Source: Lysobacteraceae bacterium
GTDB taxonomy: Bacteria > Pseudomonadota > Gammaproteobacteria > Xanthomonadales > BPKI01
Direction of reading: 5' to 3'
DNA length: 48,562 bases
Assembly: GCA_035444205.1 (NCBI GenBank)
Contig: DAOMOD010000004.1
Span: 1 to 48,562 of the forward strand
In this document: in pieces, positions 1,131-46,120 of the stretch
Numbering within the stretch: the first letter of the stretch is position 1
Layout: the number at the start of each line of letters is the position of its first letter
Program-made: the position numbers and the translations under genes
The notes under the pieces: model-generated
Told to the model about the DNA's origin: nothing
Database searches by the model: none
Seen by the model: the letters and a program-made list of their open reading frames with translations, nothing else

Positions 1131-2689
1131 GGCGGCGCCTGCACTGCGTCGTTGGCCTGAAACTGTTGTGCGTAATCGCGGCACAGCGCGGCGATCTCGG
1201 CCGATTCGGGCGCGCGGTGCCCATAGGCGACGGCGATCCAGGCCGGCAGCAGGCGTTCCAGGTAGTCCGCGGTCCCGGCGCCCAGAGCGCGCCGGGTGGC
1301 GCGTTGCACGTCGCCTTCGGTGGCGCCTTCGCCGATTCGCAGACCGTGCCGGTGCACAATCACCGACAGTACGCCGCGGTACAGCAGCGACAGTGCCTCG
1401 CGCAGGCGACCCTCGGCCAATGCCGCCAGTGCGGTGGCGGCCACATCCTGCGGCAGCGAGTCGGGGCTGATGGCAAGGCCGAACAGCACGGCCGGTGCGG
1501 CCTGCCCCGGTTCGCTCACGGGCCGCCGCTGATAGTGGCGTGCCAGCGTCCACACCAGGGCCACCGCCAGTGCCGCCAGCACCAGCCACGACAGGCCCTT
1601 GAGAAAGCTGGACATCAGCTTGCCGATCTCGCCCAGCCAGCTCAGGTCGCGGCTGGAACGGTCCCGGCGCTGGCGCAAGGACCAGCGCTCGACCTCGTCC
1701 CAGCGACCGAAGACGGGATCGGACATGACCTCCAGCACGGCGCGTCGCGCGGGCGTGTCCAGCGACGGCACCGACTGTCCCGTCGCTGCGCCGGGCTCAT
1801 CGCAATCTTCCTCGTCCTCCCAGAGTACGAAGTTGCAATCGCGTTCGTCGTGGGACTGGGTGGAATCGCTGTCTTTGGTTGGGGATGCCATGACATGCGT
1901 GGCGCTTCCGGCCAACACCAACGCGAGGGCGAACACCATGAGGACGGCGCTCGCCGCGCCGCGCGCAAGGCGGCGCAGGCCAAGCTCGATGTCCCAGCCC
2001 TCCAGCATGACGCGCCGATTGAGGTAGAGGGCGAAGCCTGCGCCCACGTAGAACGGTTCGATCACGCTTACCGCCAGCACGTACAGCAGCGAGAGTTTCA
2101 TCGACCACCAGGTCGGCTCGAAGAACGGCATGTCGTCGGGATCGGCGCGATCCACGCCCGGCCACAGCATCTCCGCCATCATGGCGCCGCCGCCGATCAC
2201 CACCAGTTCGAAGCAGAAGCACACCAGGGCCAGAGCCATGAGATGGCCGCCGACCTTGCGTGCGAGCAGGGTGTTGCGCTGGCGCGCGGCCTTGCCGCCC
2301 TGGCGTTCGAGCTGGTACACCGGTGCGAAAAAACTTCGCTGCCAGGCGAACGGCCGCAACAGCAACGACACCATCAGGCCACGCCCCAGGATCTCGCGCC
2401 AGGCGCCAAGTGTCGCCGCAAGTCCGGGAGGCTCGCCGAACACCGCGTGACCCAGCACGTGCAACAGGAAGCGGTCGAACACCGGCTTGCTCCACCACAG
2501 CACCAGCGCGGCCAGGAAGGGGTATTCGCGCAGGGTCACCAGCACCGCGGCGGCAAAGGGCAGGAACAGCGTGAACCACACCGACCACAGTGGCATGGCC
2601 CAGCGCGTCGTCATGCGAAAGCCGAGATCGATGGCTTCGAATCCCTGACGCGGGCGCAGCGCGATGGCGATGCGGTCAAGCTGCATTGC
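1127..2689 (-). CDS. DUF4129 domain-containing polytopic membrane protein (520 aa)
   Basis: ORF 1127..2833(-). I place the start at MQLDRIAIALRP (2689), which overlaps the upstream stop by 14 nt. It has several TM segments, an acidic linker and a C-terminal ...LAEGRLREALSLLYRGVLSVIVHRHGLRIGEGATEGD... block typical of DUF4129. Confidence 0.6.
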   Translation of the reverse strand, partial: AMQLDRIAIALRPRQGFEAIDLGFRMTTRWAMPLWSVWFTLFLPFAAAVLVTLREYPFLAALVLWWSKPVFDRFLLHVLGHAVFGEPPGLAATLGAWREILGRGLMVSLLLRPFAWQRSFFAPVYQLERQGGKAARQRNTLLARKVGGHLMALALVCFCFELVVIGGGAMMAEMLWPGVDRADPDDMPFFEPTWWSMKLSLLYVLAVSVIEPFYVGAGFALYLNRRVMLEGWDIELGLRRLARGAASAVLMVFALALVLAGSATHVMASPTKDSDSTQSHDERDCNFVLWEDEEDCDEPGAATGQSVPSLDTPARRAVLEVMSDPVFGRWDEVERWSLRQRRDRSSRDLSWLGEIGKLMSSFLKGLSWLVLAALAVALVWTLARHYQRRPVSEPGQAAPAVLFGLAISPDSLPQDVAATALAALAEGRLREALSLLYRGVLSVIVHRHGLRIGEGATEGDVQRATRRALGAGTADYLERLLPAWIAVAYGHRAPESAEIAALCRDYAQQFQANDAVQAPP

Positions 2690-3683
2690 GTCGTCCCGCC
2701 AGACCGAGATAGGCGAGCACCAGGAACCAGGCAACCAGGCCGACCGCGTACTTCGGCCGCGCGTCGGCCAGTACCAGCGGCGACCAGAACGCCTCCACCG
2801 CGGCGGCCGCCACGAACATGAGCGCGGCGCCACCCATCAGCGCCAGGGCGGTACGCCCCTCCTCGACCAGGGCGTGGCGGCGTGAGCGTCGCCCGGGCAT
2901 CAGCAGGGCGGCGCCGAGCTTGAGGCCGGCAGCGCCGGAGATCGCGATGGCGACCAGTTCGAGCGCGCTGTGCCCGGCGACGAAGGACCATATCTGCGGC
3001 CCCAGCCCGACCTGGGTCAGGTGGCCCAGCACGGCACCGATATGTACGCCGTTGTAGATCAGGAAGAACAGGCTGCCGAGGCCGAACAGCACGCCGCCGG
3101 CGAAGGTCTGGAAGCCGATGCGCACGTTGTTCCAGATGTAGAAGCCGAACATCATGGTGTCGGTGTCGGCGGCGCGTCGGCCCAGCCGGTGGTTGGCGGG
3201 GTCATACATCTGCTGCATCTCGGAAAGCTGCTCCGGCGCCAGCACGGTGGCGGCGAAGTCGGGAAACCAGTGCAGGGCGATCAGCAGACCCAGCAGCGGA
3301 CCGAAGAACAGCAGGGTGGACAGTGCGACCACGCGCCATTCGGCACGCACCAGACGCGGAAAGCCGAAACGCAGGTATTCCAGAAGACGAAGGCTGCGCG
3401 CGGCCTTGGCACCGTACAGCGTATGGTGACCGCCCAGCACCAGGCGCTGCAGGCGCGCCACCAGGGCCGGTGCGTAACGCCGCTGCCTGGCCAGGGCGAG
3501 CTGCGCGCAGAGCGCGCGATAGGCCTGCGGCACGTCAGCATCGGCGAGGCCATGTTGCGGATGCTCGGACAGACGTTTCGCCAGCGCGCGGCGCGCGCGC
3601 CGGCTCAGCTGGCGCCGCTTGAGCCAGACTTCGAAGCGATCCCATTCCGAGTCGTAGCGGCGTTCGAATTCAAGCTGACGCAT
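2676..3683 (-). CDS. SpoIIM-like (stage II sporulation protein M family) integral membrane protein
   Basis: 335-aa ORF with a soluble N-terminus (MRQLEFERRYDSEWDRFEVWLKRRQL...) followed by about 5 TM helices. It overlaps the RDD gene stop by 14 nt. Confidence 0.65.
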   Translation of the reverse strand: MRQLEFERRYDSEWDRFEVWLKRRQLSRRARRALAKRLSEHPQHGLADADVPQAYRALCAQLALARQRRYAPALVARLQRLVLGGHHTLYGAKAARSLRLLEYLRFGFPRLVRAEWRVVALSTLLFFGPLLGLLIALHWFPDFAATVLAPEQLSEMQQMYDPANHRLGRRAADTDTMMFGFYIWNNVRIGFQTFAGGVLFGLGSLFFLIYNGVHIGAVLGHLTQVGLGPQIWSFVAGHSALELVAIAISGAAGLKLGAALLMPGRRSRRHALVEEGRTALALMGGAALMFVAAAAVEAFWSPLVLADARPKYAVGLVAWFLVLAYLGLAGRRNAA

Positions 3684-4368
3684 GGCGCGGCGTCTGTGTG
3701 CCGATCAGGTGATTGGCTACGGCGTTGAGTTGTTCGACGGCCGCGTCGGTCCCGTCGAGCAGCGGCTCGGCCAGATACGCCAGCTCCTCGGCACGGGCGC
3801 TGCCCAGTTCCGGGGCGCGCTCGGCAAAGTCGAGTACGACGCGCGCTTCGTCCAGCGACAGCGGACGAAGCGGCGGCTTCGGATCGGCCGCGGGAATCCG
3901 CCGCGAAGGTGCTTCATGTTCGGCGTACACGACCAGGGTTCCGGCCACGTAGTCGCCGAGGCGCTTGAACTGCCTGTTCCACAGCATGGCCACCAGGCCG
4001 CCCAGATACAGCAGCGGCAGGAAGTCGGCGAAGCGCAACAGGTTCCGCGTCAGCGCCGGTCCCCAGCCAATGGGAGCACCGTCGTCGCGCACCACCACCA
4101 GGCCCAGCGCCTTCTTTCCCGGCGTGGCGCCGCCCCATTCGGCCTCACACCAGGCCGGCACCAGCCACTCCAGCATGAACCAGCCGATCAGAAACAGGCC
4201 GATACCGAAGCGCTGGAACGGCAGCAGCACCAGCACCAGCGCGAACAGCGCCGCGCCCCGCCACAGCAGGTCGATCAGCCAGGCCAGTGCGCGCGGTACG
4301 GGGCCGGCCAGGCGCAGGCGCAGCTCCACGCCCTCCGGCGTGGCGATGCAGTGTTCGGTGTCCAGCAT
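3670..4368 (-). CDS. RDD family membrane protein (232 aa)
   Basis: ORF 3670..4635(-). The likely start is MLDTEHCIATPEGVELRLRLAGP at 4368. The motif ...RNLLRFADFLPLLYLGGLVAMLWNRQFKRLGDYVAGTLVVY matches the RDD family. There is a TGATG stop/start overlap with the upstream gene. Confidence 0.7.
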   Translation of the reverse strand: MLDTEHCIATPEGVELRLRLAGPVPRALAWLIDLLWRGAALFALVLVLLPFQRFGIGLFLIGWFMLEWLVPAWCEAEWGGATPGKKALGLVVVRDDGAPIGWGPALTRNLLRFADFLPLLYLGGLVAMLWNRQFKRLGDYVAGTLVVYAEHEAPSRRIPAADPKPPLRPLSLDEARVVLDFAERAPELGSARAEELAYLAEPLLDGTDAAVEQLNAVANHLIGTQTPRHASA

Positions 4369-5153
4369 CAGTCGGAGAAAAAGATGTCGCGATAGGCCAT
4401 GTAGGTGGAGGTGTAGAACCAGGGGCCGACAACCAGCCAGCCCAGCAACAGGGGGATGGTGGCGGCGATGGCAAGAAAAGCGGCGATCAGGCCGTAAAGC
4501 AGGAACGGCAGGATGTTCTTGAGGCAGGCGAAGAAGCTCAGTCGCATCGCCTGCAGCGGTTGCTTGTCGTGCATGATCACCATGTGCGGTGCGAACCAGA
4601 TGCACATCACCAGCGGCATCAGCAATGCCATCCACACCAGCATGCCGAGCAGAAAGCCGAGCCCCATCACTTCCGCCAGCCCGGCCTCGTCGCCGCCGAT
4701 GAAGGCGATGCCGCCGGCCAGTCCGATGGTAGGCACGAACGCCAGCAGCAGCACCACCACCACAGCCACCGTGTAAAGCAGTCCGAGCAGCACCAGCGCC
4801 CCGCTGTTCCTCGAGAATCCGGTGAACAGATGCTGGAACTCCAGCGGCTCACCCCGGCGCATGGCGTCGCAGCCGACCACCACGCCGGCGGTGAGGATGG
4901 GGAACAGGATGTTCTGCGCCAGCATGCCGAAGAAGGGCACCAGGCTACTGACCAGCATGAGGCCCATGAAGACGAGAAAGATGAGTATCCAGATTCCCGG
5001 ACTCTGCGAGAACAGATTCCAGCCGTCGCCGAACCAGGAGACGGCGCGTCCGGCGCGGCACGATCTTGGTTCCCCCAGAAAATCGCCGGAATCGCCGGGC
5101 GCAACGTAGTCCGCCACAACGGCCCTGGGGGCCTCATAAGGGTTGCTGGTCAT
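4368..5153 (-). CDS. BPSS1780-like multi-pass membrane protein (261 aa)
   Basis: ORF 4368..5201(-). The likely start is MTSNPYEAPRAVV (5153). It has about 6 TM helices and ends ...YMAYRDIFFSD. It is the first gene of the coupled operon. Confidence 0.5.
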   Translation of the reverse strand: MTSNPYEAPRAVVADYVAPGDSGDFLGEPRSCRAGRAVSWFGDGWNLFSQSPGIWILIFLVFMGLMLVSSLVPFFGMLAQNILFPILTAGVVVGCDAMRRGEPLEFQHLFTGFSRNSGALVLLGLLYTVAVVVVLLLAFVPTIGLAGGIAFIGGDEAGLAEVMGLGFLLGMLVWMALLMPLVMCIWFAPHMVIMHDKQPLQAMRLSFFACLKNILPFLLYGLIAAFLAIAATIPLLLGWLVVGPWFYTSTYMAYRDIFFSD

Positions 5154-9122: not shown

Positions 9123-9826
9123 GCGTCGGCCCGCAGCAGGCGATAGCCACCGCCGCGCACGGTGATGAGATGCACCGGGTTCTTCGGGTCGTCCTCGATC
9201 TTGCGGCGCAGCTTGGCGATGTGGATGTCCACGGTTCGCGTTTCGATGCCGAGGTCGCGTCCGTAGCCCCAGACACGGGCCAGCAATTCCTCGCGTGGCA
9301 CCGGGCGGTCGCCGTGACCGGCAAGGTATTGCAGCAGTTCGGTTTCGCGGCGGGTGAGGCGAGTCTCCACCCCGCCGCGGCGAAGGCACAGATTGCGGGT
9401 GTCGATTTCTGCGCCGTCGGTAAGCACGATGCTGCGTTGACCGTCCAGTTCGGGACGCGTGCGCCTGAGTACCGCCTGCACGCGCAGCACCAGTTGCGCC
9501 ACCGAGAACGGCTTGGCCACGTAATCGTCGGCGCCCAGGCGCAGTCCTTCGACAATGTCCTCGTCGGCCGAGCGCGCAGTGAGCATGATCACGGCCTGGT
9601 CGGGGTCGGCCTCGCGGATCGCCTCGCATACGGCGAAGCCGTCCATGCCAGGGAGCATCACATCGAGCAGGATCAGATCGAAGCGCTCGCGCAGGGCACG
9701 CTTGAGGCCTTCGCAGCCGTCGCCGACCGCCTCGATGTCGAAGCCATGATAGACGAACACGTCGACCAGGCCGGTGCGGATGGCCGGTTCGTCTTCGACG
9801 ATGAGCAGGCGAGGCTTGCGTTGCAT
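9119..9826 (-). CDS. OmpR-family response regulator (235 aa)
   Basis: Receiver domain (LLIVEDEPAI...DLILLDVMLPGMDG) plus a winged-helix domain (...VDIHIAKLRRKIEDDPKNPVHLITVRGGGYRL). Confidence 0.9.
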   Translation of the reverse strand: MQRKPRLLIVEDEPAIRTGLVDVFVYHGFDIEAVGDGCEGLKRALRERFDLILLDVMLPGMDGFAVCEAIREADPDQAVIMLTARSADEDIVEGLRLGADDYVAKPFSVAQLVLRVQAVLRRTRPELDGQRSIVLTDGAEIDTRNLCLRRGGVETRLTRRETELLQYLAGHGDRPVPREELLARVWGYGRDLGIETRTVDIHIAKLRRKIEDDPKNPVHLITVRGGGYRLLRADA

Positions 9827-9853: not shown

Positions 9854-9923
9854 GTAGGAGCGGCGAAAGCCGCGATGATCAGCATCGAGCGGAGCGTCTG
9901 ATCGCGGCTTTCGCCGCTCCTAC
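9854..9923. repeat. REP/BIME-like element: perfect 23-bp inverted repeat GTAGGAGCGGCGAAAGCCGCGAT / ATCGCGGCTTTCGCCGCTCCTAC
   Basis: Arms at 9854-9876 and 9901-9923 with a 24-nt spacer. Each arm contains its own GCGGC-GAAA-GCCGC hairpin. It lies in the divergent gap between the response regulator and the pspA-like gene. Confidence 0.7.
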
Positions 9924-25421: not shown

Positions 25422-26483
25422 TCAGTGCTGGGAAATGCGGGGATCGTGCTGCTCGATGACGATCTCCACCCTGCGGTTCTGCTGGCGTCCTTCGGCCGTG
25501 GCATTGGTGGCGACCGGAAAGTCGAGTCCGAGACCACGCGCCGAAAGACGCGCCGGATCGATGCCGCCGCCGATCAGGTACGCGCGCACCGCGTTGGCGC
25601 GACGTTCCGACAAGCCCAGGTTGTACTCGGGGCTTCCGGTCGAATCGGTGTGGCCTTCGATTTCGACACGCGTCTGTGGATGGTCGGTGAGTGCCGCCAC
25701 AAGCTTGTCGAGATTGCGCGCGGCCCCCGGCTTGAGCTCGGAACGGTCGACCTCGAACAGGACATCGCCCAGGGTCACCACCAGGCCGCGATCGGTTTGC
25801 CGCGCCTCGAGATCGGCCAACTGGGCCTGCAGCGACTGAAGCTGGCGCTGAGCGTGCTCGGCTTCCTCGCGGGCACGCTGCGCTTCCAGTTGCTTCTGCT
25901 CGGCATCCGCACGCGCACGTTGCGCCAGCAGTCGCTCCTCTTCGGCGCGCAGGCGCTCGGCCTCCGCCATGGCCTGGGCATCGCGTGCTTCGTCGCGTGC
26001 GCGTACCGCTTCGCTGCGACCCAGTTCTGCCCGATGGCGTTCCTGTTCGGCGCGCAGGCGTTCGGCCTCCGCCATGGCCTGGGCGGAGCGTGCGTCACGG
26101 CGCGCCCGGTCAGCCTCTGCCTCACGGGCGCGGATCAGCATGTGTTCGCGCTCACGTGACAGTGCTTCGGTGCGTTCTCCGGCGTGGCGGGCCAGGCCTT
26201 CGGCCTCTGCGATCTGGACAAGTCGATCGGCCATGTACAGGCGATAGTCGTAATCGTCCTTGCGCAGCCGCCGGGCATCGGTGGCCAGCGCATCGACGAC
26301 CCGCTGCGCTTCGCGCAGCTCGATATCGGCGTACGGGCCGATGCGACTGTCCGCGCGCATGCTGTCGAGCTGCATCTGCAGCCGGACGACTTCCGAAGGT
26401 GGGCCCTTGGGCGTGGAGGCACATGCCGAGATCAGCAGTGCGCATGCAAGCAGTGCGGCGACTTTAAAAAGGTTGCGGTTCAT
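25422..26483 (-). CDS. OmpA-family lipoprotein with DUF4398-like N-terminus and long coiled coil (353 aa)
   Basis: Lipobox LLISAC. Charged coiled-coil repeats. C-terminal OmpA_C: VTLGDVLFEVDRSELKPGA...IEGHTDSTGSPEYNLGLSERRANAVRAYL. Confidence 0.85.
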   Translation of the reverse strand: MNRNLFKVAALLACALLISACASTPKGPPSEVVRLQMQLDSMRADSRIGPYADIELREAQRVVDALATDARRLRKDDYDYRLYMADRLVQIAEAEGLARHAGERTEALSREREHMLIRAREAEADRARRDARSAQAMAEAERLRAEQERHRAELGRSEAVRARDEARDAQAMAEAERLRAEEERLLAQRARADAEQKQLEAQRAREEAEHAQRQLQSLQAQLADLEARQTDRGLVVTLGDVLFEVDRSELKPGAARNLDKLVAALTDHPQTRVEIEGHTDSTGSPEYNLGLSERRANAVRAYLIGGGIDPARLSARGLGLDFPVATNATAEGRQQNRRVEIVIEQHDPRISQH

Positions 26484-30274: not shown

Positions 30275-30324
30275 GGGAACCTCTGAACAAGTCCGCGCGC
30301 GCGAGGACTTGTTCAGAGGTTCCC
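30275..30324. repeat. perfect 20-bp inverted repeat (stem-loop) abutting the GT41 stop codon; possible terminator
   Basis: GGGAACCTCTGAACAAGTCC-GCGCGCGCGA-GGACTTGTTCAGAGGTTCCC. There is no U-tract on either strand. The stem contains CTGAACA, the unit of the 34.8-kb heptamer array. Confidence 0.5.
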
Positions 30325-32429
30325 TAGCCCGCGAGCATGGTCTCGATGGTTTCCGGCAATGCCAGCAGCGCATCGTCGCGCTGGAACAGCGCATCCTTGT
30401 GGGCGTCGATGGTGCTGCGCAACTGACGGCGCCGGGCGGCATCGCCGGCCAGGGCAATCGCCGCTTCCGCGAGGCCTTCCGGAGAGGGGTGGATCAATTC
30501 GTCCATGCCGATCAGGCGCAGCATGGCCGCGCTCTGGCGGCCGCGCATGAACCGCCCGGGGCAGGTGAGGATGGGCAGTCCGCTGGCCAGTGCGTCGAGG
30601 CTGGTGTTGCCGCCCGACCAGTGCAACGTGTCGAGCATGAAGTCGCAGGCCCGATTGACCGCGAGATAGTGCGGTCGGTCTGTCAGAGGGAGTATTCGCA
30701 GCTGGAGTGCGGGATTGGCGCCGGCCGATTCCAGCGCACGTTCGACACGACTGCGAAGCGCGTGCGTCATGCCCGGCGACTCGCCTCCGAACAACACCCA
30801 GGTCAGGTCGGGAACGGCGGCAGCAATCTGGCCGAGCACGGCGTCGTTGTCCGGGTGGATCTTGAATGGGCTTTGCGGGAACAGGCCGAGCACGCGCTCG
30901 GCAGGAAGGCCGAGGTCCTCGCGCGACCGTGGCGGGGCGGCCGGTGGAGGCAGGTAGTGGCTGCCGATTCCGGGAAGCAGGTGCAAACGCTCGCTATAGT
31001 GAAACTGCGCGTCGGCAGGTTCCATCTCGGCGCAGGACAGCATGGCGTCGATGTTGGGCAGCCCACTGGTTACCGGATGGCCCCATGCGCATGCCTGGCG
31101 CCGCGCAAGGCGCAGCGAGGCCAATGGAATCACACGCATGTCCATGCCCAGCTCCGGATAGATGATCAGGTCGAACGCTGCCTCGTGCAGCGTATCGGCC
31201 AGCGCGTCCAGACCTTCGTCCCAGCGCGCCAAGCTGGAGCAGCCCGCTGCGAATCGGTCGGTGAACTCATCGTAGCGTGGCCCCAACTGGAACACGCTCA
31301 CGTCGTAGCCGGCCTCACTCAAGGCGCGTGGCCATGCGCCGAAGTAATGGCCCGCGGTACAGTTGCGGAAGCATGAGCCGACGAATCCGATGCGCCGCCC
31401 GTTCGTTCCGGGTCCAATGGCCTCCATGAGCGTGGGGCGAAAGGTGGTCAGGCAGCGCGCGACAAGGCGGCCGTAGTTCTCCTGCAGCTCGCGATCGTCC
31501 CGCCCGTGGTAGGCGAGCAGAAAATTGCTCCACACCAGCTGGTCGAAGCTCGGTGCCATCTTCGACAGGCGCGCTGGAGTGAGTTGCCTGTGCAGTTCGG
31601 AAAGGCCTTGCTGGAAGCCTTCGCGTGCGTGGTCCACCCAATGCTGATCCTCCGGCACCGGCGGCAGGGACAGATGAGCCTGCAACAGGCCACGCAGGCC
31701 GGGAGCGTGTCGTCCCTCGCCGCTGGCGGTGAAGACCGCCAGGGATATTTCGCGTGCCGGCTTGAGGTGGTGGTTGCATGCCAGCTCCCGGGCTGCTTCG
31801 AGTGCCGCCACCGCGCTCCCGGATTCCGGTGGCAGCGGATGCAGCAGGCGCAGGGTCAGGCGCGGCATGCTGGCGCGAGCAGCGACCTTGGCGGCACGCA
31901 GGCGCAGATCGTCCGGCAGGTTGTCGGGAATGGGCGTCAGCCAGCGCGCGGCAGCTTCCATGTCGCTCGGCAGGAGAAGCTCGGCGAGCAGCAGGCGCGC
32001 CTCGGTGTCGTCCGGGCTGATTTCGAGCAGTCGGGTCAGAGTCTGGACGGCACGGGGATCGTCGTTCTGGGCCTGGAAAAGCAGGGCCAGATTGAACATG
32101 GCGGGCGCGTATTCCGGAAGCAGGACCAGCGCGTCCATCAGGTCGTGGCGGGCATGCTCCAGATCCCCGGCGCGCAGACGGCGCGAGCCGCGTGCGTTGA
32201 GTGTGGTGGCCAGGGCGCGCTGAAAACGCGGATCTTCGGGAAGCTGTCGCTGCAGCACCTCCAGATCCTCGATCGCGGCATCCAGTTGGCCGCTCTTGAT
32301 GTGCGCGTTGGCGCGCAGGCTGCGTGCTTCGGTGTCGAGGTCGTTGCCAGCCAGTAGCGCATCGGTCAAGGTCAGCACCTGCGCAAGGTCGCCGGCAAGG
32401 AAGGCGCGACGTGCCTGATCGAGGCTCAT
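30324..32429 (-). CDS. TPR-repeat protein fused to GT41 (O-GlcNAc-transferase/SPY-like) glycosyltransferase (701 aa)
   Basis: N-terminal TPRs. The C-terminal half carries ...AWGHPVTSGLPNIDAMLS..., ...FKIHPDNDAVL... and ...DTLHWSGGNTSLDALASGLPILTCPG, characteristic of bacterial OGT homologues. I prefer the ATG at 32429 to the GTG at 32471. Confidence 0.8.
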   Translation of the reverse strand: MSLDQARRAFLAGDLAQVLTLTDALLAGNDLDTEARSLRANAHIKSGQLDAAIEDLEVLQRQLPEDPRFQRALATTLNARGSRRLRAGDLEHARHDLMDALVLLPEYAPAMFNLALLFQAQNDDPRAVQTLTRLLEISPDDTEARLLLAELLLPSDMEAAARWLTPIPDNLPDDLRLRAAKVAARASMPRLTLRLLHPLPPESGSAVAALEAARELACNHHLKPAREISLAVFTASGEGRHAPGLRGLLQAHLSLPPVPEDQHWVDHAREGFQQGLSELHRQLTPARLSKMAPSFDQLVWSNFLLAYHGRDDRELQENYGRLVARCLTTFRPTLMEAIGPGTNGRRIGFVGSCFRNCTAGHYFGAWPRALSEAGYDVSVFQLGPRYDEFTDRFAAGCSSLARWDEGLDALADTLHEAAFDLIIYPELGMDMRVIPLASLRLARRQACAWGHPVTSGLPNIDAMLSCAEMEPADAQFHYSERLHLLPGIGSHYLPPPAAPPRSREDLGLPAERVLGLFPQSPFKIHPDNDAVLGQIAAAVPDLTWVLFGGESPGMTHALRSRVERALESAGANPALQLRILPLTDRPHYLAVNRACDFMLDTLHWSGGNTSLDALASGLPILTCPGRFMRGRQSAAMLRLIGMDELIHPSPEGLAEAAIALAGDAARRRQLRSTIDAHKDALFQRDDALLALPETIETMLAG

Positions 32430-32453
32430 GGCACGATCAGGCTGGACGGCTGG

Positions 32454-32471
32454 GTGTCCGAAAACGGACAC
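32454..32471. promoter_or_regulatory. perfect palindrome GTGTCCG-AAAA-CGGACAC in a divergent promoter gap
   Basis: It lies between the GT41 start (32429, minus) and the ABC ATPase start (32520/32577, plus). It is a candidate operator; no factor is known. Confidence 0.3.
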
Positions 32472-32519: not shown

Positions 32520-33260
32520 ATGCGGCACGCTGGTTGCATCCTGTTGAATGATCCCATCATCCTGGAAGTCGAATCCGTGATTGAACTCAGTAATGTCGAG
32601 AAATCTTACCCGTTGCAGGCGGGTCGGGTCTGGGTATTGCGTCACATCCAGCTCAGTGTCGCCGAGGGCGAGTTCCTGAGCGTGATCGGACCGTCCGGTT
32701 CCGGCAAATCCACCCTGCTCGGCATCCTCGGCCTGCTCGACGCCGACTGGCAGGGCCAGTACCGTTTCGGCGATGCCGAGATCCACCGCATGGGTGCGCG
32801 CGACCGCAATGCCTTCGCACGCGACAACGTGGGGTTCATCTTTCAGCAGTACCACCTGATCGATGACCTCACCGTCTACGAGAATCTTGACCTGCCGCTT
32901 TCCTATCGCGACATCAAATCCGACGAGCGGCGCTCCCGGGTCGCCGACATGCTCGATCGTTTCCAGATCGTCGGCAAGAAGGACCTGTTTCCGCGCCAGC
33001 TTTCCGGCGGCCAGCAGCAGATGGTGGCAGTGGCGCGCGCGGTCATCACCCGGCCGCGCCTGCTGCTGGCGGACGAACCCACCGGCGCCCTGCACACCAG
33101 TCAGGGCAGGATGATCATGGACCTGCTGGAGGAGTTGAATCGCGATGGCATGACCATCGTGCAGGTCACCCACAATCCGGAGTACGCGGCACGCGGCCAG
33201 CGCACCATCGAGCTTCAGGACGGCTGGATCAGCGGCCAGAAGCAGGATTCCGCGGCATGA
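32520..33260 (+). CDS. ABC transporter ATP-binding protein (MacB/LolD-like), no permease nearby
   Basis: ...[10 protein letters not shown]..., Walker [10 protein letters not shown], signature LSGGQQQ and Walker B LLLADEPT. The start is uncertain (ATG 32520, or GTG 32577 giving [11 protein letters not shown]). Confidence 0.85.
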
Positions 33261-34636
33261 GCCGGCGCCCCCACATCCTGGTCGCCGACGACCAGCCCGA
33301 CGTGCTGCAGGCCCTGCGCCTGCTGCTCAAGTCCGAGGGCTTCACCTGTCGTACCGTCAGCTCGCCCGCCGAGGCCACGGAAGCGATCGGCAAGGACGCC
33401 TTCGATGCCGCCCTGATCGACCTGAATTACAGCCGCGATACCACCTCGGGGCAGGAGGGCCTGGACCTCATCGAGAAGCTGCGCGACATCGAGGGTGAGC
33501 TTCCGGTGGTGGTGATGACTGCATGGGCCACCATCGATATCGCGGTGGAGGCCATGCGCCGCGGCGCCGGCGATTTCATCGAGAAGCCGTGGGAGAACCG
33601 CCGTCTGATCTCGGTACTGCGCAACCAGGTGGCGCTCGGTCAGGCGCGTCGCCGCGAAGCCCGGCTGAGTACCGAGAATGCACTGCTGCGCGAGGAGGGT
33701 GAGGGTGAGTTCATCGCCCGTTCGGCCGCCATGCGGCCGGTGCTGGCGATGATCGAGCGGGTGGCGCCGTCGGACGCCAACGTGCTGATCCTCGGCGAGA
33801 ACGGCACAGGCAAAGGGGTGATCGCAGATCTCATCCACCGCGCCTCGCGGCGCGCCGGGCAGTCGCTGATCAAGGTCAACATGGGCGGCATCGCCGAAAG
33901 CGTGTTCGAGTCGGAGATGTTCGGCCACGTCAAGGGTGCCTTCACCGACGCCCGTAGCGATCGCATCGGGCGCTTCGAACTGGCCGACGGCGGCACCCTG
34001 TTTCTCGACGAGATTGCCAACATTCCCATGTCGCAGCAGCCCAAGCTGCTGCGCGTGCTGGAAGATGGCGAGCTGGAGCGCGTCGGTTCCTCGCGCACGC
34101 TCAAGGTGGACGTGCGTCTGCTTGCCGCGACCAACGCCGACCTCGCCGCCGAAGTCGCGCGAGGCGCCTTCCGCAAGGACCTGCTGTACCGGTTGAATAC
34201 GGTCGAACTGCGGCTGCCCCCATTGCGCGAACGTCGTGAGGACATCGTGCCCATGGCCGAGGCCTTCCTGCGTCGATCAGGGCGCCGCTACCAACGCGAG
34301 GACCTGCGCTTCTCGCCTTCGGCGCTGCTCCTTCTGGAGCGGTACGCCTGGCCGGGCAATGTGCGCGAGCTGTCACACGTGATCGAGCGCGCCGTGCTGA
34401 TGACACAGGGCAGCGTGATCGAGCAGGTCGACGTCGGCGCGCCTGCGGTGGCCGCCGATTCCGCCGTCGAAAAGGTCGCCCTGGGCTCGATGACCCTGGA
34501 GGAGGCGGAGCAGGCGATGATCCGCAATGCCATGGACCGCTGCGAGGGGAACATCCAGCACGCCGCCGACATGCTCGGCCTGTCCCGGCCGGCGCTGTAT
34601 CGGCGGCTGGAGAAGTATGGGATCCAGGCCGCTTAG
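33257..34636 (+). CDS. sigma54-dependent (NtrC/Fis-family) response regulator (459 aa)
   Basis: Receiver domain (ILVADDQPDV...), AAA+ domain (GENGTGKG, ESEMFGHVKGAFTDA, LFLDEI) and C-terminal Fis-type HTH (GNIQHAADMLGLSRPALYRRL). ATGA overlap with the ABC ATPase stop. Confidence 0.9.
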   Translation: MSRRPHILVADDQPDVLQALRLLLKSEGFTCRTVSSPAEATEAIGKDAFDAALIDLNYSRDTTSGQEGLDLIEKLRDIEGELPVVVMTAWATIDIAVEAMRRGAGDFIEKPWENRRLISVLRNQVALGQARRREARLSTENALLREEGEGEFIARSAAMRPVLAMIERVAPSDANVLILGENGTGKGVIADLIHRASRRAGQSLIKVNMGGIAESVFESEMFGHVKGAFTDARSDRIGRFELADGGTLFLDEIANIPMSQQPKLLRVLEDGELERVGSSRTLKVDVRLLAATNADLAAEVARGAFRKDLLYRLNTVELRLPPLRERREDIVPMAEAFLRRSGRRYQREDLRFSPSALLLLERYAWPGNVRELSHVIERAVLMTQGSVIEQVDVGAPAVAADSAVEKVALGSMTLEEAEQAMIRNAMDRCEGNIQHAADMLGLSRPALYRRLEKYGIQAA

Positions 34637-34646
34637 CGGCCTGGGG

Positions 34647-34828
34647 TTTTCAGTTTTCAGTGTTCAGTTTTCAGATGCGCGCACCACCGATTGCGAATCG
34701 ATGCTGGCAATCCTGGCTCGATCCGGAGTATGAAGGTCTGCATCCAAAGGAGAGTTCAGCCCGTTTTCTGCGCTCGGTCTTCAAGTCTGAGAACTGAACA
34801 CTGAACACTGAACACCGAACACTGAAAA
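34647..34828. repeat. heptamer-array hairpin element A: (TTTTCAG/TGTTCAG)x4, 112-nt core, (CTGAACA-type)x6
   Basis: Left array 34647-34674 and right array 34787-34828 (CTGAGAA CTGAACA CTGAACA CTGAACA CCGAACA CTGAAAA). The arms are reverse complements: 28 bp in register with 3 mismatches. Confidence 0.85.
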
Positions 34829-34847
34829 CCGTCTCCAGAGACCCCCC

Positions 34848-36203
34848 TTGCCCCCCTCCCGACGATCTCCCTGGCAATCCACCCCCGGCCGCGGCACGAG
34901 TTACGAGGCGCGCGTGTTCGTGGGTGCGCTGGTGGTGGCGGTGCCCTCGTTGCTGGCAGCGGCTGCGCTGCTCTGGCACCGGGGTGTGCTGGACAGCGTC
35001 TTCTGGACCGTAGCCGCGGTGGTAGTGTTTGCCACGCTGATCCTGGCCTACCGGTTGCGCAACCGCGTGGTGTTTCCGCTGTACACGCTGTCGAACCTGC
35101 TGGAGGCGCTGCGTGAGGGCGATTACAGTCTGCGCGGTTCGCGCGCCAGGCGGCGCGACGCCATCGGCGAGGTGGTGTGGGAAATCAACATGCTGTCGCA
35201 GACCTTGCGCGAGCAGCGGGTCAAGGTCGAGGAGACCTCGGCACTGCTCGGCAAGGTGATCGCCGCCGGCGATATCGCCATCTTCACCTTCGACGACGCG
35301 CATCGCCTGCGCCTGGTCAATCCCGCCGGCGAACGCCTGCTGGCGTCGCGGGCCAACGAACTTCTCGGTCGCAGCGCGGCCGAGCTCGGCCTGCTCGATT
35401 GCCTCGATGTGCCGGTCGCCGCCACCGTCAAGCGTGCCTTTCCCGGCGGCAGCGGCCGCTTCGACGTGCGCCACGCCACTTTCCGCGAGGGTGGGCGCCC
35501 ACACGATCTTCTGGTCATCACCGACCTGTCGCGCGCGCTGCGTGAAGAGGAGCGTGCCGCCTGGCAGCGCCTGATCCGCGTGTTGGGGCATGAGCTCAAC
35601 AATTCGCTTGCGCCGATCAAGTCGATGGCCGGTACGCTGAACAGCCTGATGGCGCAGCAGCCGCTGCCCGAGGACTGGCGCGAGGATCTGGGAGAGGGCC
35701 TCGGCCTCATCGGCGACCGAGCCGAGGCGCTGTCGCGCTTCATGGCCGGCTACACCTCGCTGGCAAGGTTGCCTGCGCCGAGCAAGCGGCCAATGGCGCT
35801 GGAAGAGGTGTTGGCACGCGTGGTGCGACTGGAACAGCGCAAGGCGGTGCTGCTGGACGCCGGCCCGGCGGTCGAGATGGAGGCCGATCCCGACCAGCTC
35901 GAACAGGCGCTGATCAACCTGGTCAAGAACGCGGTGGAGGCGAGCCTGAGCGGTGGCGGCAAGGTGACGGTCCGCTGGCTGGCGGATGCCGAGGAAGTGC
36001 TGATCGAGGTTGTCGACGAGGGTCCCGGACTTGCCAGCACCGAGAACCTGTTCGTGCCCTTCTTCACCACCAAACCCGGCGGCTCCGGCATCGGACTGGT
36101 ACTGGCGCGGCAGATCGTCGAGGGTCACGGCGGCAGCCTGGCGCTGGAGAACCGCAGCCCGGGTCCGGGTTGTGTGGCGCGGGTGGTGCTGCCGCGGGGG
36201 TAG
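34848..36203 (+). CDS. HAMP/PAS sensor histidine kinase (NtrB-like), partner of the sigma54 regulator
   Basis: Two N-terminal TM helices, HAMP-like ...LSNLLEALREGDYSLRG... and H-box LIRVLGHELNNSLAPIKS, with a C-terminal ATPase (GSGIGLVLARQIVEGHGG). The start is TTG 34848 (no SD) or GTG 34914 (GAGG 6 nt upstream). Confidence 0.85.
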   Translation: MPPSRRSPWQSTPGRGTSYEARVFVGALVVAVPSLLAAAALLWHRGVLDSVFWTVAAVVVFATLILAYRLRNRVVFPLYTLSNLLEALREGDYSLRGSRARRRDAIGEVVWEINMLSQTLREQRVKVEETSALLGKVIAAGDIAIFTFDDAHRLRLVNPAGERLLASRANELLGRSAAELGLLDCLDVPVAATVKRAFPGGSGRFDVRHATFREGGRPHDLLVITDLSRALREEERAAWQRLIRVLGHELNNSLAPIKSMAGTLNSLMAQQPLPEDWREDLGEGLGLIGDRAEALSRFMAGYTSLARLPAPSKRPMALEEVLARVVRLEQRKAVLLDAGPAVEMEADPDQLEQALINLVKNAVEASLSGGGKVTVRWLADAEEVLIEVVDEGPGLASTENLFVPFFTTKPGGSGIGLVLARQIVEGHGGSLALENRSPGPGCVARVVLPRG

Positions 36204-36214
36204 GGGGCTTCTTC

Positions 36215-36383
36215 GGGGCCCAGGGCTTTAGGGCTTAGGGCCTAGGGCCTAGGGCCTAGGGAACAGCTCGCAAGTAAAGAGTGCTGTCGCGGTGCTCCGA
36301 TAAGCATGGAAAGCCTGCCTTCGCTCCGAGCTTGCCGCCCTCTAGGCCCTAGGCCCTAGGCCCTGATAGGCGGCCCTAGGCCC
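36215..36383. repeat. heptamer-array hairpin element B: (GGGCYTA)x5-6, 84-nt core, (TAGGCCC)x5
   Basis: Left array 36215-36258, with GGGCCTA x3 at 36238-36258. Right array 36343-36383, with TAGGCCC x3 at 36343-36363, one unit carrying a GCG insertion, and one more unit. The inner 21 bp are perfectly complementary. Confidence 0.85.
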
Positions 36384-36437
36384 TGGCAAGCCAATCCGAT
36401 ACCCTTGCCGCCCCTTCGAGTCCTGATCCGACTGCCC

Positions 36438-36845
36438 ATGTCCCAGAGCGAAATCCTTACCCCCGTCTCCGTCGGCGAGCTGCTCGACAAGATTGCCATT
36501 CTCGAAATCAAGTCCGAACGAATCGGCGACGAGGCCAAGCTGGTCAATGTGCGCCGCGAGCTCGAGGCCTTGAGTGGAGTCTGGTCCGGGGCTCCGGCGT
36601 CGGCGGTCGACCTCGGTGATCTGCGCCAGCGGCTCAAGGCGGTGAACGAGCGCCTGTGGGTGATCGAGGACGACATCCGACGGAAGGAGAAGGCCAAGGC
36701 CTTCGACGACGAGTTCATCCAGCTGGCCCGCGCCGTTTATTTCGAGAACGACGAGCGCGCGCGCATCAAGAAGGACATCAACCTGCGTACCGGCTCGGTT
36801 TTCGTCGAGGAGAAGTCGTACCAGGACTATGGGAACAGGGAGTAG
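36438..36845 (+). CDS. small conserved hypothetical protein, DUF6165-like (135 aa)
   Basis: MSQSEILTPVSVGELLDKIAILEIKSERI...LWVIEDDIRRKE...FIQLARAVYFENDERARIKKDIN...VEEKSYQDY. The family name is from memory of similar LPS-locus proteins. Confidence 0.6.
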   Translation: MSQSEILTPVSVGELLDKIAILEIKSERIGDEAKLVNVRRELEALSGVWSGAPASAVDLGDLRQRLKAVNERLWVIEDDIRRKEKAKAFDDEFIQLARAVYFENDERARIKKDINLRTGSVFVEEKSYQDYGNRE

Positions 36846-37015
36846 GGAGCAGCGTCGCAGGTCAAACCCGCCCATGCGGGCCAGGGTGCGACCCGGGTGC
36901 GGTACGGATGCGAAGTGACAATTGCGAGTCCGGATCGAGCAGAGCATGAGTGCGCGACGCTTTTCCGGGTCCCGGGTCCCGGGTCCCGGGTCCCGATTCC
37001 CGAGTCCCGAGTCCC
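36831..37015. repeat. heptamer-array element C: (GGGAACA GGGAGTA GGGAGCA), 115-nt core, (GGGTCCC)x4 GATTCCC (GAGTCCC)x2
   Basis: The left array 36831-36851 overlaps the last codons and stop of the DUF6165-like gene. The right array is 36967-37015. The arms are only partly complementary (GGGA/TCCC plus 1-2 positions per unit). Confidence 0.8.
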
Positions 37016-37038
37016 GGCTTTTCCCCTATCCTTCCCCC

Positions 37039-37809
37039 ATGCCCGGCACACCTGCGCCCCCGTATGTCAGTCAGCTCGAAACGCCGCACGGCGCGATCCT
37101 GTGCGACGAGGAGGTGGCGGACCGGATCGACATCGCCTGGTTCGACGTCGAGCACTGGCGCCGGCAGGGTGGTGCCGACGCGACGCCGGCCGGACGCGGC
37201 GCCGCGGCCTTCGTCGAAACGCCGGCCGGGCCCATGGTGCTGCGGCGCTATCTGCGCGGTGGCCTGGCGGCGCGACTGAGCCGCGACCGCTACCTGTTCA
37301 CAGGCGCCGACCGAACCCGCGGTTTTGCCGAGTTTCGCATGTTGGCGAAGCTGCGTCGGGCCGGCCTGCGCGTGCCGCAGCCGCTGGCGGCGATGTACCG
37401 GCGCCACGGGCTGTTCTACGCCGCTGCCATCCTGGTGGCACGTATCGAGGGCGTGACGCGTCTTTGCGAACTGCTGGACAGGGCCGACCACAGGCTGTTC
37501 GCTCATGTGGGACGTGCGATCGGAGACCTGCACCGGCAACGTGTCTGGCATGCCGATCTGAACGCCGACAACATCCTGCTCGATGAGGGCGGCGATGTGT
37601 GGCTGGTCGATTTCGACCGTGCGCGCGTACGCGACCAGCCCGGCGACGGCGCCTGGGCGCTCGGCAACCTGGCGCGCCTGCGCCGCTCCATGTTCAAGTT
37701 CGAGGCGCCGCGCCGCATGGCCGATTTCGAGGGCGCATGGGCCGAGCTGCTGCGTGGTCATGCGGTGGTCCTGCGCGGTACCGACCGACCGCTCGGGAAG
37801 CCGGCATGA
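37039..37809 (+). CDS. kdkA: 3-deoxy-D-manno-octulosonic acid (Kdo) kinase (256 aa)
   Basis: ...GRGAAAFVETPAGPMVLRRYLRGGL...FAEFRMLAKLRRAGLRVPQPLAA...VWHADLNADNILLDEGGDVWLVDFDRA matches KdkA signature blocks. Confidence 0.8.
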   Translation: MPGTPAPPYVSQLETPHGAILCDEEVADRIDIAWFDVEHWRRQGGADATPAGRGAAAFVETPAGPMVLRRYLRGGLAARLSRDRYLFTGADRTRGFAEFRMLAKLRRAGLRVPQPLAAMYRRHGLFYAAAILVARIEGVTRLCELLDRADHRLFAHVGRAIGDLHRQRVWHADLNADNILLDEGGDVWLVDFDRARVRDQPGDGAWALGNLARLRRSMFKFEAPRRMADFEGAWAELLRGHAVVLRGTDRPLGKPA

Positions 37810-44790: not shown

Positions 44791-45053
44791 CCGCCGCCGG
44801 ACTGCGTTGCGTCGATTCCGGCCCGCACCCCCTACCCCTCGCGAGTTTCCGGGGCTGCTTCGCGCAATACGCGCCCGGTAGCTCTTTTTTCGCGTCAACC
44901 GGATACGGGTAAACTGGGCGTCGCTCCCATCGCACCCTCCGGCATGGAGCCCGAAGCGCCCGGCATCGTCCGGGCGTTTCGCTTTCTGCCGATAGCCAGG
45001 GCGCACGATCAGCAGCGGGGCGCCGTCATGGTGGGGCCACTGAGGAAACGCGC

Positions 45054-46018: not shown

Positions 46019-46120
46019 GTCGGAAGTCCTCGAACTAGGGGGCGTGAAAAAAGGGCTACCGGGCGCGTATCGCGCCGGATAGCGCTGGAAGCTCGCGAGG
46101 GGGTAGGGGGTCAATCGCTC

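Follow-up and report, generated by a model that had tools for sequence, protein, structure and literature searches.

Convergent pairs of heptamer arrays in three consecutive intergenic gaps of a Lysobacteraceae gene cluster

The 48,562-nt stretch of contig DAOMOD010000004.1 from a Lysobacteraceae bacterium, which we refer to as the window, carries three repeat elements, A, B and C, in three consecutive gaps between four co-oriented genes: those of a sigma54-type response regulator, a histidine kinase, a DUF6165 protein and the Kdo kinase KdkA. Judging by their sequence and placement, the three elements are very probably convergent pairs of heptameric simple-sequence-repeat arrays of the kind described by Rehm et al. 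2015 (PLoS One, PMC4692102): the units of element C are of the GGGAATC type, the units of B are another variety of G3N4 heptamer, and the units of A are close to the heptamer TAACTGA. For the way in which the pairs may act, we tentatively propose a mechanism in which hairpins between the two arms contribute to translational coupling; identity and mechanism taken jointly, we consider this the best explanation of the elements, with a probability of about 0.5. The arrays and spacers of the three elements are the following:

A, left array: 34647–34674, + strand; TTTTCAG TTTTCAG TGTTCAG TTTTCAG; starts 10 nt past the regulator stop.
A, spacer (“core”): 34675–34786; 112 nt, non-repetitive, with the 12-mer GCTCGATCCGGA at 34716–34727.
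A, right array: 34787–34830, + strand; six units (34787–34828), CTGAGAA, CTGAACA x3, CCGAACA and CTGAAAA, followed by CC; ends 17 nt before the kinase TTG.
B, left array: about 36215–36261, + strand; G3N4 units GGGGCCC, AGGGCTTT, AGGGCTT and AGGGCCT x3; starts 11 nt past the kinase stop.
B, spacer: 36262–36341; 80 nt.
B, right array: 36342–36386, + strand; CTAGGCC x3, CTGATAGGCGGCC, CTAGGCC and CTGG; ends 51 nt before the DUF6165 ATG.
C, left array, rudimentary: 36831–36852, + strand; GGGAACA GGGAGTA GGGAGCA G; overlaps the last DUF6165 codons and the stop (distance 0 nt).
C, spacer: 36853–36964; about 112 nt, with the reverse complement of GCTCGATCCGGA at 36929–36940.
C, right array: 36965–37017, + strand; CC, GGGTCCC x4, GATTCCC, GAGTCCC x2 and GG; ends 21 nt before the kdkA ATG; 7.6 copies and a score of 78 in Tandem Repeats Finder.

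Structure and placement of the paired arrays

Our search for period-7 arrays has been conducted with Tandem Repeats Finder and with an independent period scan, and both confine the arrays of the window to the regulator–kinase, kinase–DUF6165 and DUF6165–kdkA gaps; at equal stringency, the period scan of the whole window has returned no arrays of period 5 or of periods 8–12. The layout that the first-pass annotation had described for each gap, i.e. an array, a non-repetitive spacer and an inverted array, is real, and the unit counts, coordinates and gene context given there agree with the sequence, the latter with the support of Pfam. The six arrays hold 3–8 units apiece, and their order is the same in every pair: the G/T-rich array comes first, by the upstream stop, 0–11 nt away from it, while its C/A-rich inverse comes second, 17–51 nt before the next start. 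The 25 nt that precede each of the downstream starts (kinase, DUF6165 and kdkA) contain none of the motifs GGAG, GAGG and AGGA.

The arrays differ in their regularity and in their capacity for other structures. The left array of B, which ends in GGGCCTA x3 when read in another frame, has at least four G3 runs and is thus capable of forming a G-quadruplex on the + strand by the sequence rule; the right array of B is interrupted by 13 nt between the CTAGGCC x3 block and the last CTAGGCC. Two of the three units of the left array of C are located inside the coding end of the DUF6165 gene, and this array has just three G3 runs, while the right array of C reads on the − strand as GGGACTC x2, GGGAATC and GGGACCC x4, which is the GGGAATC/(GGGANTN) type of Xanthomonas; the spacer between the two is closed by an inner stem, GCGTCGC ... 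GCGACGC. The quadruplex rule is therefore followed by B and by the − strand of the right arm of C, and not by A or by the left arm of C.

The arms of A are complementary over 31 nt at 90%, and the arms of B over 23 nt at 100% (the right array against 36237–36259). When the RNA folds of the gaps are compared with those of dinucleotide shuffles, the folds of gap A (z −3.6) and gap B (z −4.6) are better than the shuffles, while the fold of gap C is no better (z −1.9, with 11 of 200 shuffles equally good). The arm complementarity that had been claimed for all three elements thus stands for A and B; in C, it is limited to GGGA/TCCC.

Relatives, other contigs and the setting of the elements

The host is an uncultured relative of the Xanthomonadales. 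Only six KdkA homologues exceed 60% identity, and those of named Rhodanobacteraceae, Dokdonella and similar genera are at about 50%. The contigs with the closest homologues have the same gene order, and their period-7 arrays occur solely at the same gene boundaries as in the window: at 65–88% KdkA identity, the arrays are retained and the spacers are replaced, with array length and sequence varying in the same gene context (loci L001, L002, L004 and L007). In gap A, both arrays of L004 and L007 have the unit type of the window; 26 of 28 positions of the right arm are invariant over the window, L004 and L007, the right arm is better conserved than the left, and the stem between the arms persists in the consensus fold of the three, while the spacer of the window is unalignable with the other two. 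In gap B, the left array always begins at the kinase stop, but its unit differs among the loci: the window has GGGCCTA, L002 has GGGGAGC/AGGGAGC, and L004 has GGGCACA. In gap C, L001 (88% KdkA identity) has CGGGTTC x5, CGGGTCC and CGAGTCC x2, with a spacer that resembles repetitive extragenic palindromes (REPs) and is unlike the spacer of the window.

Independent assemblies of relatives that are 99.8–99.97% identical (L002/L003 and L004/L005/L006) have identical arrays, with no indels and no change of copy number; it follows that the arrays do not stem from misassembly and are not hypermutable on that scale, and an assembly artefact in the window itself is unlikely. Among 80 kdkA loci from named Xanthomonadales that have been scanned for period-7 arrays, such arrays are rare and pairs occur in L035 and L050 only, which makes the three-gap pattern specific to the lineage of the window. 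Further copies, for which the first-pass annotation had called, do exist elsewhere, so that this is not slippage confined to one locus. In L035, a metagenome-assembled genome (MAG) of the Lysobacterales, the pair fills the ybaB–recR gap (9196–9306) with a purine-rich GGAGTGA-type array, a short hairpin and a TCACTCC/TCGCTCC array that reaches up to the recR ATG; Shine-Dalgarno-like motifs lie inside its 5' arm and not before the recR start. L050, a Steroidobacter MAG, has array sites near kdkA at 2117–2285 and 3003–3124: (CGAGNCC)n arrays, which resemble the CGAGTCC units, at both sides of the gap upstream of kdkA, and a GGGGGTA x4 ... TACCCCC x3 pair directly after the kdkA stop, between convergent genes. 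In L001 (2–928), the 88%-identical KdkA, protein P0002, is listed with 308 residues against 256, its open reading frame (ORF) running from the contig end through the heptamer array; the extra N-terminus is an annotation artefact due to the repeat, an example of how heptamer arrays can produce false N-terminal extensions.

The first-pass annotation had preferred to see in the elements a mobile family like the MITEs (miniature transposable elements with inverted repeats), or a small RNA in a conserved core, with the arrays as flanking inverted repeats. The 12-mer GCTCGATCCGGA is located exactly where it had been reported, in the core of A and, on the opposite strand, in the core of C, and the ungapped local score of this pair has a p value of about 0.007, as one of six pairwise comparisons that we have made under four scoring schemes with dinucleotide-shuffle nulls. 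The likeness of the cores does not extend beyond the 12-mer: the gapped A/C alignments are not significant under three scorings (p 0.07–0.14), all comparisons that involve the core of B are at background, and the 48,562 nt hold no second copy of a core. The cores are also wholly different between orthologues, even at 88% protein identity, and in relatives they contain ordinary REP-like palindromes; over 50 further pairs have likewise been compared, and their cores, from 1 to 283 nt in length, show no relation in sequence. The Rfam scan of the window has given no match at the gathering threshold, so membership in a curated family is rejected; under permissive settings, an sbcD RNA match lies over C (25.4 bits against a threshold of 40, E 0.03), and we have set it aside as spurious, since it is sub-threshold and is not reproduced in four orthologous loci. 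We have seen no target-site duplications at elements A–C, and the arms, as the outer inverted repeats, differ among the three; Rehm et al. 2015 (PMC4692102) have likewise reported heptamer arrays without association with mobile elements. With non-homologous cores, element-specific arms, no duplications and no other copy of a core in the window, identity with MITEs is rejected, and the reading as a mobile family or a small RNA is largely refuted and highly improbable: the elements should be labelled neither MITEs nor small RNAs in annotation, and the spacers are unrelated filler between the arms.

In order to follow the unit of A beyond the orthologous loci, we have scanned metagenome and viral contigs with the pattern of its right arm (CTGAAMA type). 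It is found in at least 120 metagenome contigs, with GC contents of 31–70%, and in at least 120 viral contigs, where the scrambled controls are found in 16–19 (control 1, two rotations of one unit), 31 (control 2) and 9 (control 3); the A-type unit is thus at least 4–13 times commoner than its controls. A partner array accompanies about 30% of the metagenome matches listed. Where two A-type arrays are adjacent, with spacers of 15–300 nt (n=64), 50 pairs are convergent with the T-rich arm first, 13 are direct and one is reversed; generic G3N4 pairs are G-first in ten cases and C-first in none in the viral contigs, and G-first in four cases against none in the Xanthomonadales loci and the window, although one of these (L001) is self-complementary and fits both patterns. 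An inverted pair reads alike on both strands, so that its handedness truly belongs to the pair. Single A-type arrays are oriented without preference, whether judged by the stops next to them (53 against 42) or by the strand of the flanking genes; the former result is from a test on stop codons only, as the distances of single arrays to the longest ORFs are too noisy in GC-rich DNA. The strict handedness of the pairs, set against its absence in single arrays, makes the pair the unit that needs explanation. Where both flanks of a pair have been called, 15 pairs lie between co-oriented, eight between convergent and four between divergent genes, and in the co-oriented cases the median distance between the stop codon and the beginning of the arms is about 8 nt.

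The CTGAAAA/CTGAACA unit class therefore recurs in very different genomes, and in phages it occurs in multi-copy cassettes. In phage contigs, (CTGAAMA)3 is located 10–25 nt upstream of many starts, on the sense strand, in conserved cassettes, some of them without a Shine-Dalgarno sequence; L224, L277 and L284 share the cassette CTCTTCC-(CTGAAMA)3-CTAGCAACTC-ATG, and L231 has four pairs in the region 1860–4958, each followed by TGGAGCGCAGCGACCATG. In this region of L231 and at several sites in L284 and L277, contigs whose GC content is 59–67%, many (TTTTCAG)n-(CTGAAAA)n hairpins or single (CTGAAMA)3 arrays stand just upstream of starts; these multi-copy arrays have the look of dispersed regulatory elements. 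A BLAST comparison of two of the multi-copy viral contigs with cultured phages has given no informative match.

The flanking genes of the window, all four confirmed by Pfam, and a hairpin at the first of the gaps are the following:

33257–34636, + strand: sigma54-type response regulator; stop TAG at 34634–34636.
34623–34645, + strand: GC-rich hairpin that overlaps the regulator stop, a terminator-like site; the T-rich left array of A lies directly 3' of it.
34848–36203, + strand: histidine kinase; TTG start at 34848, stop TAG at 36201–36203.
36438–36845, + strand: DUF6165 protein; ATG at 36438, stop TAG at 36843–36845.
37039–37809, + strand: Kdo kinase KdkA; ATG at 37039.

An exact-sequence look-up of the DUF6165 protein has given no record. 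The hairpin at 34623–34645 looks like an intrinsic terminator, and is the only structure in the gaps that would fit a GC-rich stem followed by a U-tract; it is kept in L004 and L007 with one compensatory change from CG to GC, and with the T-rich array behind it could attenuate the expression of the kinase. Two blocks are conserved across the orthologues, CTATCCTTCC at 37026–37035, which ends 3 nt before the kdkA ATG, and CAATCCG.TATCTTTCCCGCCCCTT at 36390–36419, before the DUF6165 start; both are candidates for −10 elements of transcripts with a short leader or none, and the starts downstream of them are without a Shine-Dalgarno sequence.

Further repeats of the window lie away from the three gaps. 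At 9854–9923, GTAGGAGCGGCGAAAGCCGCGAT forms a perfect inverted pair of 23 nt around a 24-nt spacer; the pair has the typical look of Xanthomonadales REPs and bacterial interspersed mosaic elements (BIMEs), and is unrelated to the heptamer arrays. A near-perfect palindrome of 25+25 nt without a spacer (30275–30324) adjoins the 3' end of a 715-aa ORF on the − strand (30324–32471) and is probably a terminator. Inverted repeats of 67 nt, 79% complementary (44828–44894 and 46043–46109), surround a segment of 1.15 kb that holds two small − strand ORFs, one of them similar to a phage small terminase at a sub-threshold level; the segment is possibly a small mobile or prophage remnant. Lastly, a 42-nt tandem repeat (2.1 copies) and a 94-nt direct repeat, 105 nt apart, occur at 25857–26117.

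Proposed mechanism and rival explanations

In the mechanism that we propose, the arrays would be made and resized by slipped-strand mispairing, and the pairs would be kept, with their fixed handedness, as hairpins in transcribed but untranslated spacers, in the manner of REPs and BIMEs. In a polycistronic mRNA, the 5' arm would lie within reach of the ribosome that terminates on the upstream gene, and would pair with the 3' arm ahead of a start that has no Shine-Dalgarno sequence; the resulting stem of 23–31 bp could mask the downstream leader until translation of the upstream gene opens it (translational coupling), block 3' exonucleases and offer a site to RNase III. The position of the 5' arm, 0–11 nt from the stop, together with starts that have none of GGAG, GAGG and AGGA before them, makes coupling, protection from exonucleases and processing by RNase III plausible.

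Several observations weigh against this proposal. The order of the unit variants is not mirrored between the arms (0.46 mismatches per unit against 0.38 under the null, in 28 A-type pairs), sense arm duplexes are no stabler than antisense ones (8 of 13), and the folds of whole gaps show no consistent advantage of the sense strand. Among the changes that a three-way alignment shows in the arms of A, three retain a wobble pair, three disrupt pairing and none is compensatory, while several G3N4 pairs elsewhere have different N4 in their two arms and are complementary at GGG/CCC only; in C, the arms pair just through GGGA/TCCC and the right array partly folds on itself. Element A is wholly absent from L002, about 70% of the A-type arrays among the matches listed are single, and some pairs lie between convergent or divergent genes, a setting that precludes translational coupling. 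What the comparison points to is a constraint at the level of the pair, seen in its handedness and retention, with no base-level sign of selected pairing. The earlier suggestion of selection for a stem rather than for a sequence is hence not borne out, given the lack of mirroring and of strand asymmetry and the differing N4; since the unit of A recurs in many genomes, its sequence class does matter.

The same observations enter into the rival explanations, of which the plainest takes the arrays as neutral by-products: the polymerase would slip by heptamers under weak selection, template switching at quasi-palindromes would make the two sides alike, and there would be no function. The heptamer as the preferred slippage unit of the replicative polymerase is a hypothesis of Mrazek that is quoted in PMC4692102 and PMC4679880, and it is in keeping with the drift of unit sequence and copy number between orthologues (GGGCCTA/GGGGAGC/GGGCACA; CGGGTCC versus CGGGTTC), with L002, which has lost or never had element A, and with the lack of covariation and of strand asymmetry. 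We nonetheless regard it as somewhat unlikely, as it does not account for a right arm of A that is invariant at 26 of 28 positions where the spacer is unalignable, an A-type unit at least 4–13 times commoner than scrambled controls, a handedness of 50 to 1, the under-representation of pairs between divergent genes, the lack of indels between near-identical assemblies and the conserved multi-copy cassettes of phage contigs.

Cold-shock domains bind about 7 nt, with a reported preference for T-rich heptamers and AGGGAGGGA, and each array could by itself be a row of sites for a single-strand binder with a footprint of this size, such as a cold-shock-domain protein or ribosomal protein S1, the A/C-rich array being a leader or standby site and the hairpin being secondary. 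The predominance of single A-type arrays, the conserved (CTGAAMA)3 cassettes 10–25 nt before phage-contig starts, the better conservation of the right arm of A and the predicted lack of structure in TAACTGA and AAACTGA arrays would suit such a binder, as would the same placement and the same candidate proteins proposed for the TAACTGA repeats (PMC4679880); independent arrays, however, would not predict the handedness of the pairs, the single arrays have no preferred orientation towards stops or the strand of flanking genes, and G3N4 and CTGAAMA units would require different binders, so that we consider this explanation unlikely. A further idea, in which the pairs are widespread, protein-tunable hairpin switches of fixed handedness in bacteria and phages, is speculative and quite improbable: the binder, of the cold-shock-domain or S1 kind and with the 7-nt period as its footprint, would bind the G/U-rich 5' arm while this emerges from the RNA polymerase, and decide on its pairing with the C/A-rich 3' arm, and the pairing would set downstream translation, or the access of Rho in untranslated spacers. 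If true, it would explain the period, why the G/T-rich arm strictly comes first on both strands, why a few unit classes recur across phyla, and why base-level covariation is missing. The pairs could otherwise be transcription terminators or insulators that divide the four genes into independent units, as the conserved GC-rich hairpin before the T-rich left arm of A, the conserved −10-like CTATCCTTCC just upstream of kdkA and the pairs between convergent genes might suggest; this we also hold to be improbable, because the arm-arm stems run into A-rich or C-rich sequence without a U-tract, the reversed handedness, which would place the U-rich arm 3' and be terminator-like for the T-rich family, is almost never seen, and a scan of the three gaps has found no sigma-70-like promoter. 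G-quadruplex or i-motif switches, in which G3N4 arrays close to gene ends fold as DNA or RNA and thereby tune transcription or translation, would be in line with the runs of at least four G3 at 4-nt spacing in B (both strands) and on the − strand of the right arm of C, and with the in vitro quadruplexes of GGGAATC repeats, which prefer four units (PMC4692102). They are very unlikely as the explanation of the elements, given that A and the large CTGAAMA family share the architecture, placement and handedness without any G-runs, that the left array of C has three G3 runs only, and that in pairs the duplex stem competes with quadruplex folding; as the convergent-pair architecture is not tied to G-runs, the quadruplex cannot be its general explanation. 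KOPS-like motifs, primase trinucleotides, sigma-54 promoter or enhancer sites, CsrA GGA sponges, HutP-like NAG-N4 sites and three-frame stop insulators have also been considered and put aside as unsupported, as each leaves at least one of the three unit types unexplained.

Comparison with known heptamer-repeat systems

In many bacterial genomes, no other long simple repeats are as over-represented as heptamers, which have been known for decades in cyanobacteria and Xanthomonas with no function found. The system that elements A–C most resemble is that of Rehm et al. 2015 (PMC4692102), whose two Xanthomonas genomes hold 186 and 183 arrays of the GGGAATC type, with 70 (Xcc) and 75 (Xac) inverted pairs that are convergent and could fold into stem-loops; the first-pass annotation knew of no description of such an architecture, but convergent heptamer pairs with the same placement at stops and starts are already part of that report. 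The arrays of that class, which spans Xanthomonas and Nostoc (GGGAATC/(GGGANTN)n), are mostly intergenic; their G-rich strand is the coding strand when they are located 0–50 bp after a stop (or overlap it), and the non-coding strand when they are located 0–50 bp before a start. Their flanking genes are co-oriented in 65–70%, convergent in 16% and divergent in 7–8% of cases, to which our counts for pair flanks (15/8/4) are similar, and their sites are conserved between species while their length and sequence vary; quadruplexes of the repeats have been formed in vitro, with a preference for four units, and the function has been reported as unknown.

Elements A–C share with this class the period of 7, the intergenic position between co-oriented genes, the pairing that is always convergent and the tandem arrays of at least two units (at least 14 bp), which holds for all six arrays, and their distances (10, 11 and 0 nt from the stop; 17, 51 and 21 nt to the start) fit the 0–50 bp rule. 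The orientation is convergent and G-rich-first in B and C, and convergent with the T-rich arm first in A, while the GGGANTN unit rule is followed by C alone (GGGAATC x1 and GGGACTC x2 on the − strand of the right arm, GGGAGTA in the left), and not by B (GGGCCTA) or A (TTTTCAG). The window differs from the Xanthomonas cases in its host, an uncultured lineage whose KdkA is only about 50% identical to that of named Xanthomonadales, in the occupation of three consecutive gaps of one gene cluster, and in element A, which is without G-runs and cannot form a quadruplex, thus weakening a quadruplex-centred view of the class.

The unit of A recalls a second system, the direct repeats of the heptamer TAACTGA in marine Beggiatoaceae, in cyanobacteria and in Bacteroidetes (MacGregor 2015, PMC4679880), which are located few nt upstream of starts that often have no ribosome-binding site and for which binding proteins of the cold-shock-domain or S1 kind have been proposed as candidates. 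CTGAAAA is a rotation of AAACTGA, one base from TAACTGA, and every unit contains UGA, which places stops in all three frames; the units of A (AAACTGA/ACACTGA) are still 1–2 bases off TAACTGA, and AAACTGA is rare as a repeat in the genome of that report (PMC4679880), where only one set in 170 is “indirect”. The placement before a start without a Shine-Dalgarno sequence is common to both, while the repeats there are direct and the arrays here form convergent pairs, in the window as in 50 of the 64 adjacent pairs of other contigs.

REPs and BIMEs stabilise mRNA and, when near a stop codon, modulate translation. The paired arrays are like them in that both are hairpins in transcribed spacers between co-oriented or convergent genes and are rare between divergent ones; they are unlike them in that REPs are imperfect palindromes of 20–40 nt, with one sequence per genome and a link to REP-associated tyrosine transposases (RAYTs), whereas the arms here are tandem arrays of site-specific units, and the window's own REP-like pair (9854–9923) differs from them in sequence.

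Two further systems are of the same period. The short tandemly repeated repetitive (STRR) heptanucleotides of heterocystous cyanobacteria, and other heptamer repeats of Nostoc near start codons (bioRxiv 10.1101/2022.06.06.494920), are also dispersed arrays near promoters or starts, with a regulatory role suspected and unproven; their units (TTTTGAA, GACYAAT) and their phylum are different, and inverted pairing has received no emphasis. The 6–7-bp variable-number-tandem-repeat (VNTR) loci that are used in multiple-locus VNTR analysis (MLVA) of Xanthomonas are probably the same physical objects, i.e. intergenic heptamer arrays that vary in copy number, although typing ignores pairing, handedness and placement, and the near-identical assemblies compared here show no change of copy number. 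In relation to all of these systems, what is new here are the A-type pairs that are not G-rich, the several unit types within one gene cluster and the handedness of the pairs; the handedness, the A-type pairs and the recurring unit class make the question of their role testable in a cultivable Xanthomonas or in a phage.

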